Source of the DNA: Actinomycetota bacterium
Lineage (GTDB): Bacteria; Actinomycetota; Acidimicrobiia; Acidimicrobiales; Ilumatobacteraceae
NCBI GenBank assembly: GCA_030645495.1
Contig: JAUSLV010000011.1
Location: 256,659 to 320,658, forward strand
Length of the DNA stretch: 64,000 nucleotides
Reading direction: 5' to 3'
The notes under the pieces are model-generated. The model ran no database searches. It was not told where the DNA came from and saw only the letters and a list, made by a program, of their open reading frames with translations. The translations under genes and the position numbers were made by a program. Positions 361 through 6,443 of the stretch are shown here, piece after piece (the stretch's first letter is position 1; each line of letters begins with the position of its first letter).

Positions 361-1683
361 TTGTCCGATACCACTACCACCTCATCCTCGACCGAGTCCA
401 CCTGGGGCACGTTCGACGACGAGGGCAACTACACCCCCCGCCAGATCGTCGCCGACGACCTTGGCATGTCCTTCGCCGAAGCCATCTCCGGCACGATGGT
501 CGACGTCGAAGACGGTCAGCTCGTCAACGGCACGGTCGTCAAGGTCGACAAGGACGAAGTGCTGCTCGACATCGGCTACAAGAGCGAGGGCGTCATCCCC
601 GCTCGCGAGCTCAGCATCCGCAACGACGTGGATCCCGCCGACATCGTGTCGCTGGGCGACAAGGTCGAAGCCCTCGTCCTCACCAAGGAGGACAAGGAAG
701 GCCGCCTGGTGCTGTCCAAGAAGCGCGCTCAGTACGAGCGCGCGTGGGGCACCATCGAAAAGATCAAGGAAGCCGACGGCACCGTCGAGGGTCCGGTCAT
801 CGAGGTCGTCAAGGGCGGTCTCATCGTCGACATCGGCTTGCGTGGCTTCCTGCCCGCATCGCTGGTCGAGCTGCGCCGTGTGCGCGATCTCCTCCCGTAC
901 GTCGGCAAGACCGTGCAGGCCAAGATCATCGAGCTCGACAAGAACCGCAACAACGTTGTGCTCAGCCGCCGCGCCTTCCTGGAAGAGACGCAGAAGGAAA
1001 GCCGCGACAGCTTCCTCACCAACCTCAAGCCGGGCGAGATCCGCGAGGGTGTTGTCAGCAGCGTCGTGTCGTTCGGTGCGTTCGTCGACCTCGGCGGTAT
1101 GGACGGCCTGATCCACGTCAGCGAGCTGTCGTGGAAGCATGTCGATCACCCGGGTGCTGTGGTCGCCGTGGGCGACAAGGTCACGGTGCAGGTGCTCGAT
1201 GTCGACTTCGATCGCGAGCGCATCAGCCTGTCGCTGAAGGCCACCCAGCAGGATCCGTGGCAAGAGTTCGCCTCCACCCACGAGGTCGGCCAGCTGGTCT
1301 ACGGCCGTGTCACCAAGCTCGTGCCGTTCGGCGGTTTCGTGCAGGTGGGCGACGGCATCGAGGGTTTGGTGCACATCTCCGAGATGTCCACCCACCACGT
1401 GGATGCTCCCGAGCAGGTTGTCACCCCGGGCGAAGAGCTGTGGGTCAAGATCATCGATCTCGACCTGGCCCGTCGCCGCATCAGCCTCTCGATCAAGCAG
1501 GCCGCCGAGGGCGGCGAGCTGGCCGAGGAGTACCGCCAGCACTTCGAGATCGACGAGCACGGCAACTGGGCTGCCGGCCAGGACGACGCCGAGCGCGAAG
1601 CCGCGTGGGCCGAGTACTACGAGGCCAACCCCGACGAGGCGCCGGGCGCGCAGGGTGGTCCCGAGGCTCCGGCCGAAGGCTGA
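361..1683 (+). CDS. rpsA: 30S ribosomal protein S1
   Basis: Repeated S1 domains are present, with the typical actinobacterial S1 N-terminus and an acidic C-terminal tail. The start is uncertain: the ORF opens at 274 and a TTG at 361 is chosen. Confidence 0.9.
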
Positions 1684-1814
1684 TCGACCACTGAGTCACC
1701 CGCCGGGCCACGTGTTCGGCACCGCACATCGAAAGAGGGGTACGGCGGGCGGCCGTGCCCCTCTTCCGCGTCTGCAGCAGGTGCGCGACGGGCTGCGGCG
1801 CTACGGTGCCCTCC

Positions 1815-2468
1815 ATGATTCTGGTGGGGCTGACGGGCGGTATCGGGTCGGGCAAGTCGACGGTGAGTGCGGCCTTGGCCGAGCGCGGCGCGGTGATCAT
1901 CGACGCCGATGCGATCGGCCGCGAGCTGCAGCAACCGGGCCAGCCACTGCTGCGCACGCTGGCCGATCGGTTCGGCGAACAGATCATCACGGCCGATGGC
2001 GCGCTCGATCGGCCGGCGCTGGCAGCCATTGCCTTCGGCGACCCCGACGCGCTGAAGGACCTGAACGCGATCGTGCATCCCGTCATCGGTGCCGAGGTGG
2101 GGCGGCGCATCGTCGAGGCTGCGCACACCGAACAGGTGGTGGTGATGGACATTCCGCTGCTCACCGAGAACCCTCGTGAGGGCCTGCAGGGCATCATCGT
2201 GATCGACGTGCCGGAGGAGATCCAGGTGCATCGCCTGGTGACCTTCCGCGGGTTCACCGAGGCCGACGCCCGCGCCCGCATCGCTCAGCAGGCCAGCCGT
2301 GAAGCGCGGCTGGCCACTGCCACGTTCGTGATCGACAACAGCGGCGACCTCGCCGCGCTGGCGCCGCAGATCGAGGCGCTGTGGCAGTGGGTGACCGCCC
2401 TGCCGCAGCTGGCTGCGGGCGAAACCGGCCTGCGCGCCGACGGTGTGGGCGGCGGCGCTACCAGCTGA
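1815..2468 (+). CDS. coaE: dephospho-CoA kinase (kinase domain only, no C-terminal UPF0157 extension)
   Basis: The P-loop sequence MILVGLTGGIGSGKST starts at the internal ATG at 1815. The protein ends ...GVGGGATS* inside a 25-bp repeat. Confidence 0.9.
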   Translation: MILVGLTGGIGSGKSTVSAALAERGAVIIDADAIGRELQQPGQPLLRTLADRFGEQIITADGALDRPALAAIAFGDPDALKDLNAIVHPVIGAEVGRRIVEAAHTEQVVVMDIPLLTENPREGLQGIIVIDVPEEIQVHRLVTFRGFTEADARARIAQQASREARLATATFVIDNSGDLAALAPQIEALWQWVTALPQLAAGETGLRADGVGGGATS

Positions 2469-2475
2469 GCCGGGC
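2450..2475. repeat. Direct repeat copy 1 (GGCGGCGCTACCAGCTGAGCCGGGC), covering the last 6 codons, stop and 3' flank of coaE
   Basis: It is an exact 25-nt match to 3348..3373, read directly from the sequence. Coordinates are +/-1. Confidence 0.9.
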
Positions 2476-2516
2476 GACGAACGAAGCTGCGCGCACCCCT
2501 TCGGTACAGTGACGCT

Positions 2517-2786
2517 GTGACTCCCGCTCCCGCGTCTGCCATCCCGGCCGACACCACCGCTGAAGCGTGGCGGGCGCAGATGCGTGCCCTGGCGGCCATG
2601 ACCCCGGCACAGCGCCTGGCGATGTGGGAGCAGCTGAACGACCAGCTCGAACAGATGGAGGTGCACGCCGTCAGCCGCCAGCACCCCACCTTCAGCGAAC
2701 ACGAACTGCAGGTTGAACTCATTCGGCGTCGGCACGGCGAGGCCCTCACCCACGCGTGGCTCACCAACGCACCGCGGGTCACTTGA
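2517..2786 (+). CDS. small helical hypothetical protein (89 aa) with a C-terminal RRRHGEALTH (Rx6H, HEPN-like) motif; candidate partner or antitoxin of the downstream nucleotidyltransferase
   Basis: The ORF has a GTG start. Its stop overlaps the next gene's ATG (TGATG at 2784-2788), suggesting translational coupling. No confident family assignment is made. Confidence 0.55.
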   Translation: MTPAPASAIPADTTAEAWRAQMRALAAMTPAQRLAMWEQLNDQLEQMEVHAVSRQHPTFSEHELQVELIRRRHGEALTHAWLTNAPRVT

Positions 2787-3364
2787 TGGGCCTGGTCGCT
2801 GCTTTTCGCCACGTCGCAACTGCGCTCGAAGCAGCAGCAGTCGACTACGTGGTCGTCGGATCAGCAGCCGCAGCAGCCTGGGGTGTGATTCGCTCCACCC
2901 GAGACATCGATCTGGTGATGGTGGTGACGGAAGGTTCGGCCGCCGCGTTGTTGGAAGGTTTGATCGACGCCGACTTCTATGTCCCCGTCAACGCGGCCGC
3001 CGAAGCACTTGCCGGCGGAGGATCGTTCAATGTCCTGCACCCGGCCACGGGTGGGAAGGTCGACGTCTTCGTCTGCCCGGCGAACGACCAGTTCGAGGTC
3101 CAACGCATTGCGCGCCGGGTTCGGATGGAGGTGTTCGGCGTCGGCTCTTGGGTTGCGACACCAGAGGATGTGGTGTTGTCGAAACTCCGTTGGCGGCTCG
3201 AATCGCAATCCGACGTGCAATGGCGCGACTGCGTCGAGCTTGCTGCGGTGCACACCCTCGACCGCAGGCATCTTCGCGTGTGGGCCGAGCGCCTCGGGAT
3301 CACTCCCGACCTCGACGCGTTGCTCGATCAGGTCGACACCGCTGGTGGCGGCGCTACCAGCTGA
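2786..3364 (+). CDS. nucleotidyltransferase-fold protein (GrpB/UPF0157-like or MNT/MenT-like), 192 aa
   Basis: The sequence VVVGSAAAAAWGVIRSTRDIDLV fits the hG[GS]x9-13DhD nucleotidyltransferase motif. The C-terminal PEDVVLSKLRWRL resembles GrpB. The protein ends ...GGGATS* in the second copy of the repeat. Confidence 0.6.
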   Translation: MGLVAAFRHVATALEAAAVDYVVVGSAAAAAWGVIRSTRDIDLVMVVTEGSAAALLEGLIDADFYVPVNAAAEALAGGGSFNVLHPATGGKVDVFVCPANDQFEVQRIARRVRMEVFGVGSWVATPEDVVLSKLRWRLESQSDVQWRDCVELAAVHTLDRRHLRVWAERLGITPDLDALLDQVDTAGGGATS

Positions 3365-3373
3365 GCCGGGCCA
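3348..3373. repeat. Direct repeat copy 2 (GGCGGCGCTACCAGCTGAGCCGGGC)
   Basis: It is an exact 25-nt match to 2450..2475. It spans the 3' ends of the nucleotidyltransferase gene (+) and of the GNAT gene (-). Confidence 0.9.
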
Positions 3374-4367
3374 ACGCCTCGCCCTCCACCACGTCGCCGG
3401 TGGGCACGAACCCGAAGCGGAGGTAGAGGGGCCGCGGGCTGCCGACGTGTTCGCGGTACGACACGGTGAGGCTGCGAGCGCCGGCCGCCTGGGTGCGCTC
3501 GGCCACCAGTTGCAGTACCTGTGTGCCGATGCCGCGCCGTTGGTGCCGACGGTCGATGAGCAGGCGCCACAGATATGGCTCGTCGGTGAGGTCGTTGCGA
3601 TCCGCCAATTGCACGAAGCCCACCGGCTCGCCATCGGCCTCGATGCCGAGCGACTGCGACACGAATGGCAGGCCGCGTACCTGTAGTGGCACCGCTGCCT
3701 GGGCGAGCGATGCCTCCACCGGGCGCACGAACCGTTGTTGCGAGTGGTGTGTCGCCAATGCCAGGTACGCATCGATGTTGTCGCCATCGAGGGCGACCAA
3801 CCGAACACCGCTCGCCGGCGACAGGGTGCGCTCGCGCCATGCCGCGCGCTGCGGGGCGAGGAGCGAGTAGCGCAGGTCGTCGACCCAGTCGCCGCCGGAG
3901 ATGAACGCATCGTGCACCAGCGACTCGAACTGGAACCCCACCGACTCGACCACCCTCATCGACGCGACGTTGCGCGGGTCGAGCGACGCCTCGAACCGGT
4001 GCACGCCGTGTGCGCACAGCGCATCGACCACAGCGGCAACAGCCTCGCCGGCGAAGGCGTGGCCCTGATGGGCGCGAGCGATCGTGTACCCGACCGTCGC
4101 TGTGCGGCCGTCGACCGACAGGCCGACCGCGACGTCGCCCACCATCTGCCCTGCGTGGTCGACCGCCAACTGCACCCACACCCCTGGTGACGGACCATTG
4201 AGTGCCTCCTGGCTGGCGGCCAGCGCATCCCCGTGACCCTCGGTGTAGGGGAGCGGCCAGTCCTGGTAGTGAGCGACTTCTGTGTCGTTGCGGTAGCCGA
4301 CGAAGGCGGGCAGGTCGGCGGCGCGCAACATCCGCACCGTCAGCCTGGTCGTGTGCAGCGGGAGCAT
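3354..4367 (-). CDS. tandem-GNAT N-acetyltransferase (two GNAT domains)
   Basis: Two acetyl-CoA binding cores are present, including RRGIGTQV, plus a RimL-like N-terminal domain. The supplied ORF extends to 4793 but that part is antisense to uvrB. A start at 4367 or 4400 is chosen. Confidence 0.7.
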
Positions 4368-4393
4368 GACGCGACGATAGCGATGGCACGGCA

Positions 4394-4407
4394 CGAACAT
4401 CCGTTCG
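4394..4407. promoter_or_regulatory. candidate LexA/SOS box CGAACATCCGTTCG (GAAC-N4-GTTC palindrome) immediately upstream of uvrB
   Basis: It matches the actinobacterial SOS-box core TCGAAC-N4-GTTCGA. It lies in the divergent GNAT/uvrB intergenic region. Confidence 0.45.
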
Positions 4408-4415
4408 GCGCTATC

Positions 4416-6443
<2,028 letters not shown>

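Follow-up and report, generated by a model that had tools for sequence, protein, structure and literature searches.

We found that a two-gene segment in a 64,000-nucleotide stretch of DNA from an Actinomycetota metagenome-assembled genome (the whole stretch is hereafter designated the window) is bracketed by a perfect 25-nt direct repeat and lies between coaE and a convergent gene for a GNAT N-acetyltransferase (hereafter GNAT), at a junction that is free of such a segment in a number of relatives annotated as Ilumatobacteraceae. We consider it likely that the segment is an old 871-bp toxin-antitoxin-like cassette, which was inserted at the overlap of the coaE and GNAT 3' ends with duplication of the target. 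The features concerned are listed below, numbered from the first letter of the window.

1815-2468, + strand: coaE, dephospho-CoA kinase (PF01121, E=5e-55)
2451-2475, + strand: repeat copy 1 (extending to 28 nt, starting at 2448, if one mismatch is allowed), consisting of the native coaE tail, the stop and then a 7-nt remnant
2476-2516, + strand: left end of the insert, made up of 13 nt (2476-2488), a promoter-like region (2489-2510) and 6 nt, followed by a GTG start
2517-2786, + strand: small gene of 89 amino acids (aa) starting at GTG 2517, a putative antitoxin related to MenA1/Rv0078B
2786-3364, + strand: nucleotidyltransferase gene of 192 aa (PF19502, DUF6036; E=1.9e-6), a putative MenT1-like toxin
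3347-3371, + strand: repeat copy 2 (28 nt from 3344), dual coding, with GGATS and stop of the toxin gene on the + strand and ARLSW and stop of GNAT on the - strand
3354-4367, - strand: two-domain GNAT N-acetyltransferase (PF13302 and PF00583), convergent with coaE and the toxin gene

The 25-mer, GGCGGCGCTACCAGCTGAGCCGGGC, is found at just two places on the + strand of the 64-kb window, 2451-2475 and 3347-3371, around the two-gene cassette; the original prediction had described this arrangement correctly, with coordinates off by 1-2 nt. The 25-mer was also checked as a possible common genomic repeat and was not dispersed, no further copies being found in the window when up to three mismatches were allowed (expectation from 100 shuffles, 0). 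With a single mismatch, GGC versus GGT, which is synonymous, the repeat extends to 28 nt (2448-2475 and 3344-3371). The 25-mer itself is composed of 7 nt, an 11-nt overlap of convergent stop regions of the coaE/GNAT type, and another 7 nt, and either copy encodes GGATS followed by a stop codon on the + strand. Copy 1 contains the last six codons of coaE (GGC GGC GCT ACC AGC TGA), whose product ends in ...ADGVGGGATS, and copy 2 holds the final five codons plus stop of the 192-aa gene, whose product likewise ends in ...GATS, so that the common C-terminal tail and stop predicted for the two genes were verified by the translations. The last five codons and the stop of GNAT (C-terminus, ...ARLSW) also lie inside copy 2, as expected from its predicted overlap with the GNAT 3' end, and copy 1 carries on its - strand a duplicate of this ARLSW end with its stop. 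Because the independent assembly L001 (Logan SRR13727526) has a repeat arrangement identical to that of the window, and because a diverged sister lineage, R1, shows the same structure in five contigs (L002-L005 and L007) from separate samples, the arrangement is no assembly artefact. A dif/Xer-like site, which is 28 bp long, was considered for the repeat and dismissed on inspection of the sequence, which is GC-rich and has arms that are not inverted repeats.

Cassette-free junctions of coaE with convergent GNAT were observed in the loci L006, L008-L018, L108 and L111-L115 of relatives, and the proposal that the segment between the repeats is an insertion is upheld by them. In L111-L115, coaE (ending in ...DGVGGDRPTS or ...KDTATS) overlaps GNAT by 11 nt, and an 18-nt core, CTACCAGCTGAGCC(G/T)GGC, is present in a single copy. 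The copy number of this core is one per cassette-free locus and two in the window. The 18-mer of L111 is identical to that of the window at all 18 positions, though the GNAT proteins are only 44% identical, and identity to the 25-mer at the empty sites of L111 and L115 amounts to 21/25. In L006, where GNAT is 78% identical to that of the window, coaE ends in ...ADGV with TGA, which is followed by 4 nt (TCGC) and then by CTA, the GNAT stop; uvrB comes directly after GNAT. The empty site foreseen in the original prediction, a single 25-mer joining coaE directly to the GNAT 3' end, was accordingly found in part, in that coaE does meet the GNAT end directly and the 18-nt core is single, and the complete 25-mer is not what these sites contain.

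The GGATS tail is native to coaE, because many coaE homologues carry tails of this kind. Thus, among homologues at 70-74% identity, many end in ...DGVGGGATT, ...DGVGGDRPTS, ...GATS, ...TATS or ...KDTATS, and a tail of the ...DGVGG(G)ATS type is present in coaE of distant cassette-free relatives. The coaE ending xCT ACC AGC TGA is at the same time the antisense of the GNAT ending ...SW with its stop. The possibility that GGCGGCG had been copied from the toxin gene into coaE was ruled out, the long ...DGVGG..TS tail being native in coaE homologues. Homologues of the 192-aa protein end in ...VDEAVG, ...VDEALG or ...VDAALG, without GATS, whereas the window protein matches this pattern of ends with ...VDTAGG and then continues into GATS. 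Because the homologues end without GATS, the toxin gene has lost its own stop and borrows the duplicated coaE tail, and it is through the use of this tail and stop that two unrelated proteins both end in GGATS. At the coaE C-termini of many Ilumatobacteraceae, KDGVD pentapeptide repeats are also found in variable number (P0294-P0322; ...KDGVDKDGVDKDGVDKDGAAPTA), and this variation points to tandem-repeat expansion at the coaE 3' end.

The insertion is old and predates the split of the window lineage from its sister lineage R1 (~20-27% protein divergence). R1 (L002-L005 and L007) carries the cassette at the same junction, with the left junction, the promoter region and the right junction all as in the window; its toxin, small protein and GNAT are 80%, 73% and 77% identical in amino acids to those of the window, and four-fold degenerate sites are only 44-63% identical. 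Since R1 shares the cassette and synonymous sites have diverged almost to saturation, the event cannot be recent as the original prediction had supposed. For the same reason, near-saturation of synonymous sites, a perfect 25-mer needs constraint, and the perfect repeat reflects coding constraint, since both strands of copy 2 are coding and copy 1 encodes the coaE tail. Gene conversion of short tracts from one copy to the other probably plays a part too. The repeat of R1 is likewise 28 nt long with one mismatch; both tails have three Gly residues in the window and both have two in R1 (DGVGGATS). On its right, copy 1 is non-coding; this part has drifted in R1 (GCCGTC versus CCTGGC) but in the window remains identical to copy 2.

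The insert proper (2476-3346, 871 nt) comprises the promoter-like region, the small gene and the nucleotidyltransferase gene. The promoter-like region, GCGCGCACCCCTTCGGTACAGT at 2489-2510, is conserved in the cassette and includes a -10-like TACAGT (2505-2510) located 6 nt before GTG 2517; the same motif occurs 5' of the small gene in R1, L018, L009 and L116. A generic scan of 1650-4500 for sigma-70 promoters and terminators found nothing, and we infer a promoter here from the conservation of the region. The 13 nt at the left junction, GACGAACGAAGCT (2476-2488), resemble an SOS-box half, CACGAACG, located 3' of the L018 cassette (the left half of the uvrB box), and they also resemble the codons of GNAT found after the repeat in relatives free of the cassette, as seen by comparison with GGGCGACGGCC in L018. 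They may be a fragment of the uvrB SOS box, which would hint at a circular intermediate, or equally well residual GNAT codons.

The small gene lies directly 5' of the nucleotidyltransferase gene in every fetched locus where both were detected (63/63, window included). In gene calls it begins at an internal ATG, giving 68 aa (L001, 1041-1247); the N-terminus conserved throughout the family (P10, D12, T13 and W18; AIPADT..W) and the TACAGT motif favour GTG 2517 and 89 aa, and translation probably starts at this GTG on a leaderless transcript. The family PF18993 ('Rv0078B-related antitoxin') was matched by 14 of the 26 small-protein family members (best E=5.5e-5), and a small-protein profile searched against the PDB gave only spurious matches to designed TIM barrels and no match to MenA1. 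The 192-aa gene, whose ATG overlaps the stop of the small gene (TGATG), belongs in Pfam to DUF6036 only and not to DUF1814 (AbiEii); the match to AbiEii in PADLOC had E=0.011. A profile built from 34 toxin homologues matches MenT1 of Mycobacterium tuberculosis (8AN4; E=3e-5). Moreover, an AlphaFold2 model of the 192-aa protein, with a mean predicted local distance difference test score (pLDDT) of 94.9 and a low-confidence GGATS tail, gave as its top PDB fold matches 8an5_A (the MenAT1 complex; E=5e-8, template modelling (TM) score 0.70) and 8an4, the TM scores ranging from 0.68 to 0.70. All 34 aligned sequences have T38, D42, K133 and D148, and nearly all have D40. The TRDID segment aligns with TRDVD of MenT1, and T38, D40 and K133 stand opposite T39, D41 and K137, which together with D152 are the catalytic residues of MenT1 (PMC10435456). 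D148 probably corresponds to D152 by its position, the profile alignment stopping at MenT1 residue 143. As judged from sequence and predicted fold, we read the gene pair as a putative, distant MenA1/MenT1-like toxin-antitoxin module. No transposase or integrase was found in the insert (Pfam returned only DUF6036, and the small open reading frame (ORF) matched no family above threshold), nor were terminal inverted repeats found at its ends. The comparison of composition with the flanks, proposed in the original prediction, did set the cassette apart, the GC content at third codon positions being 0.73 for the toxin gene and 0.81 for the small gene versus 0.85-0.92 in rpsA, coaE, GNAT, uvrB and uvrA.

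The arrangement would be explained as follows. In an Ilumatobacteraceae-like ancestor, the 3' ends of coaE and convergent GNAT would have overlapped by 11 nt, and a cassette carrying its own promoter, an antitoxin-like gene and a MenT1-like toxin gene would have been inserted exactly at this overlap. At least 25 nt across the overlap would thereby have been duplicated, leaving one copy on each side of the insert, so that copy 1 would preserve the native tail and stop of coaE, and copy 2 the terminal codons and the stop of GNAT. The toxin gene, presumably ending natively at about ...VDTAGG, would have lost its own stop, read five codons into the duplicated coaE tail and stopped there. Because the insert encodes no recombinase, a recombinase-independent insertion is most likely, for example by microhomology-guided template switching or illegitimate recombination. 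At the right junction, an imperfect GGYGGC match (GGT GGC / GGC GGC) is seen, and this is a possible microhomology.

The search for other copies of the cassette, likewise suggested in the original prediction, revealed a family that is abundant in Acidimicrobiia and occupies many contexts, the relatives in GTDB species genomes numbering 367; one metagenome-assembled genome has two copies. The closest homologues of the toxin include those of cassettes at the unrelated loci L020 and L116. Flanking repeats were scored, with cross-locus controls reaching a maximum of 14, and the following three loci were found to have repeats that score far higher than these controls and enclose just the two cassette genes.

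L044, 3645-3682 and 4543-4580: 38 nt, exact, at a GC-rich hairpin between convergent genes, with a thiolase gene upstream
L029, 3539-3602 and 4585-4648: 64 nt, imperfect, at the 3' end of tRNA-Ala(GGC)
L042, 3588-3607 and 4633-4652: 20 nt, at the 3' end of tRNA-Ala(GGC)

The flanking repeats differ in sequence from site to site. L073, which is related to L044, has a cassette at the same site without the hairpins. In sponge-associated Acidimicrobiia (L029, L042, L036, L031, L035 and L062), the cassette is located beside tRNA genes, near-identical cassettes being found at different sites, among them tRNA-Leu, and the cassette of L062 adjoining tRNA-Arg; a possible inverted motif, GGGAACTTCTGGGAA, occurs near both ends of the cassettes at tRNA-Ala(GGC). 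In L018 (3729-4567), a two-gene cassette is placed between GNAT and uvrB (rpsA-coaE><GNAT-SM-NT-uvrB, SM and NT denoting the small and nucleotidyltransferase genes), exactly between ...CACGG and the SOS box CACGAAC and without a long duplication. In L008-L017, the small gene alone stands between GNAT and uvrB and the toxin gene is missing; L009 (825-1124), for example, has a lone 99-aa homologue with a different C-terminus. This lone gene looks like an orphan antitoxin remnant. A more far-reaching idea, rather improbable in our estimation, is that MenA1/MenT1-like cassettes of Acidimicrobiia are self-contained mobile units that repeatedly enter gene or tRNA 3' ends independently of a recombinase, with long target duplications of variable length, and that gene conversion homogenises the repeats and keeps the cassettes competent for excision over very long times. 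If that were true, the window would be one documented case beside L044 (38 bp) and L029/L042 (20-64 bp, tRNA-Ala).

Between 274 and 6443, the window contains only rpsA, coaE, the cassette, GNAT and uvrB. The original prediction had regarded rpsA-coaE-uvrB as an otherwise conserved backbone; the rpsA-coaE-GNAT-uvrB locus is in fact a hot spot, for which relatives show five or more arrangements. One further feature of the window belongs here.

4368-4418, no strand assigned: intergenic region between GNAT and uvrB, with a LexA-type box, CGAACATCCGTTCG, at 4394-4407

This LexA/Cheo-type box lies 11 nt 5' of the uvrB start and is kept in L006, L009, L018, L108, L111 and L115. The GNAT-uvrB spacer of the window differs very little from its counterpart in L006, which is cassette-free, and thus bears no scar such as an earlier cassette would have left. 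The location of the L018 cassette beyond GNAT had prompted a model in which adjacent segments were swapped, through a tandem duplication and two deletions or through movement of GNAT. Movement of GNAT was ruled out by the GNAT-uvrB junction of the window, which is of the unscarred, cassette-free type. GNAT orthologues adjoin coaE in relatives; some relatives lack GNAT and have uvrB immediately after coaE. A two-component system (a GAF histidine kinase and a GerE-type response regulator) is found upstream of coaE in some relatives among L108-L115, the P0247 contig and L117; in L114 and L115 it stands between rpsA and coaE, and the window has none. R1 (L007, 1-425) has an extra ORF and a hairpin between GNAT and uvrB, both absent from the window, and L108 has a hairpin at the same place. 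A metagenome scan with the GNAT protein returned one relevant locus only, which was among those already compared.

Several other histories were weighed. The cassette may have resided between GNAT and uvrB, as in L018, and have reached the coaE/GNAT junction, ~1 kb away, by way of an intermediate that was duplicated or circular, the old copy being lost and the repeat being the footprint of the move. The occupation of that site by the cassette in L018 and by the small gene alone in L008-L017 is in keeping with such a move, as is the small-protein tree, which places L008/L009 and L018 together with the window and R1 (identity 65-69% versus <=53% elsewhere). However, the toxin is as similar to those of cassettes at unrelated loci (L116, 65%; L020, 60%) as to that of L018 (62%), and the promoter motif common to the window and L018 is present in L116 too. 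The loose likeness of the 13 nt at the left junction, GACGAACGAAGCT, to the SOS-box half CACGAACG 3' of the L018 cassette is equally explained by residual GNAT codons (GGGCGACGGCC in L018). Moreover, closer relatives are cassette-free on both sides of GNAT, and the unscarred, L006-like spacer described above also speaks against a move, which we regard as possible but somewhat unlikely. An origin in two steps, in which a tandem duplication of ~25-35 nt first parted the coaE and GNAT ends and the cassette later entered the dispensable 14 nt between the stops, appears decidedly unlikely. Short tandem duplications are common, the coaE 3' ends of the clade show repeat expansion (KDGVDKDGVDK... tails), and an insertion between the copies would be neutral; yet the insert would have had to land exactly at the copy junction, a chance of ~1 in 14, an unfilled tandem duplication was seen in no fetched locus, and the loss of the toxin stop is better accommodated by a single joint event.

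The original prediction had read the repeat as a target-site duplication or an att site left by a recent mobile element. The duplicated target stands, and a classical element, with the 25-mer as the target-site duplication of a transposase or the att core of an integrase, is very unlikely. A long exact direct repeat around a discrete segment and the existence of empty sites would suit such an element, and some family members at tRNA 3' ends are flanked by a duplicated tRNA end, like integrase-borne islands. Against this, neither a transposase or integrase gene nor terminal inverted repeats are present in the insert, and 25-28 nt is far above the usual length of transposon duplications. Other sites have repeats of unrelated sequence, and a common att is therefore lacking. 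The recency of the event is largely refuted by a lineage that shares the insertion and has near-saturated synonymous sites. Some actinobacterial CoaE proteins carry a C-terminal UPF0157 domain, and the original prediction had offered as an alternative the break-up of an ancestral coaE-UPF0157 fusion by a rearrangement in which its terminal codons were used again. This would account for the common C-terminus of coaE and the 192-aa gene, but the 192-aa protein matches DUF6036 and MenT1 and no UPF0157/GrpB family in Pfam, its gene always follows its own small partner, at many unrelated loci, and all of the 120 listed coaE homologues (199-262 aa) are too short for an extra C-terminal domain. With the tail native to coaE as well, a split fusion has virtually no chance of being correct.

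The favoured reading, insertion of the cassette at the coaE/GNAT overlap with duplication of the target, has several observations to reckon with, which weigh against it. No present-day empty allele with the complete 25-mer was found among the fetched relatives, and in the nearest cassette-free ones (L006, L108, L018 and L009) the coaE tail is truncated, TGATCGC, TAG or similar replacing GGCGGCG; since the nearest empty sites lack the complete 25-mer, the ancestral target was reconstructed from more distant genomes. The small protein of the window matches PF18993 with E=0.16, below threshold, and the gene-conversion reading is drawn from two lineages, the window and R1. More than 50 of the 57 testable family loci have no flanking repeat, and long duplication is therefore no demonstrated general property of the family. 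The 25-28 bp of the window also fall under the 30-bp cut-off applied to long target duplications, the operational value of Furuta et al. being >30 bp (PMC2853133); the duplication may originally have been longer.

The movement and fixation of chromosomal toxin-antitoxin modules are still poorly understood (PMC2654758). The present locus affords a clean before-and-after view of a cassette, consisting of a promoter, an antitoxin-like gene and a toxin gene, entering a pair of overlapping convergent stops, where both neighbours survived the insertion because the overlap was duplicated. It also shows that a perfect long repeat does not imply a recent event, and, for annotation, it accounts for the common C-terminus of unrelated proteins and for the too-short call of the small gene.

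Comparison with known systems was made for both the cargo and the mode of insertion. MenA1-MenT1 of M. tuberculosis (Rv0078B-Rv0078A; Xu et al. 2023, PMC10435456; Cai et al. 2020, PMC7450476) has the same gene order, with a small protein encoded upstream of a nucleotidyltransferase of ~190 aa; profile and fold searches with the window toxin both rank MenT1 first, and the equivalents of T39, D41 and K137, and probably that of D152, are conserved. The window toxin differs from MenT1 in being only ~19% identical to it and in belonging to the Pfam family DUF6036 instead of DUF1814, and the small protein differs from MenA1 in its sub-threshold match, its family giving only weak matches to PF18993. 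The attL/attR repeats of integrase islands at tRNA genes complete the 3' end of an interrupted gene, and the repeat here does so too; in some members of the cassette family, a duplicated 3' end of tRNA-Ala stands on either side. Unlike in those islands, there is no integrase inside or adjacent to the window insert, the target is not a tRNA gene and the repeat sequence varies among sites. Duplications made by insertion sequences and transposons also place a direct repeat of the target on both sides of the insert, but they are usually <10 bp long (PMC2853133, Figure 1 legend), in contrast to the 25-28 bp found here around an insert that has neither a transposase nor terminal inverted repeats.

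The best-fitting known phenomenon is insertion with long target duplication, which has been described for restriction-modification gene complexes (Nobusato et al. 2000, Gene 259:99; Furuta, Abe and Kobayashi 2010, NAR 38:2428, PMC2853133) and whose repeats may overlap the 3' end of a neighbouring gene or of a tRNA (PMC2853133). In both cases, one genome has a small addiction-type module that its relatives lack, and a unique target, far longer than a transposon duplication, is directly repeated around an insert with no mobility gene inside. The window insertion differs in that its cargo is a toxin-antitoxin pair (by predicted function), its target is an overlap of two convergent stop codons, its toxin gene uses the duplicated stop, and the event is ancient with the repeat kept identical. 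The pattern of long target duplication, described to date for restriction-modification complexes, would thus be extended to a MenT-like toxin-antitoxin family. Collectively, the insertion may be regarded as tidy and textbook-style and not unprecedented, and there is a modest chance that it points to a general mode of insertion for this family.

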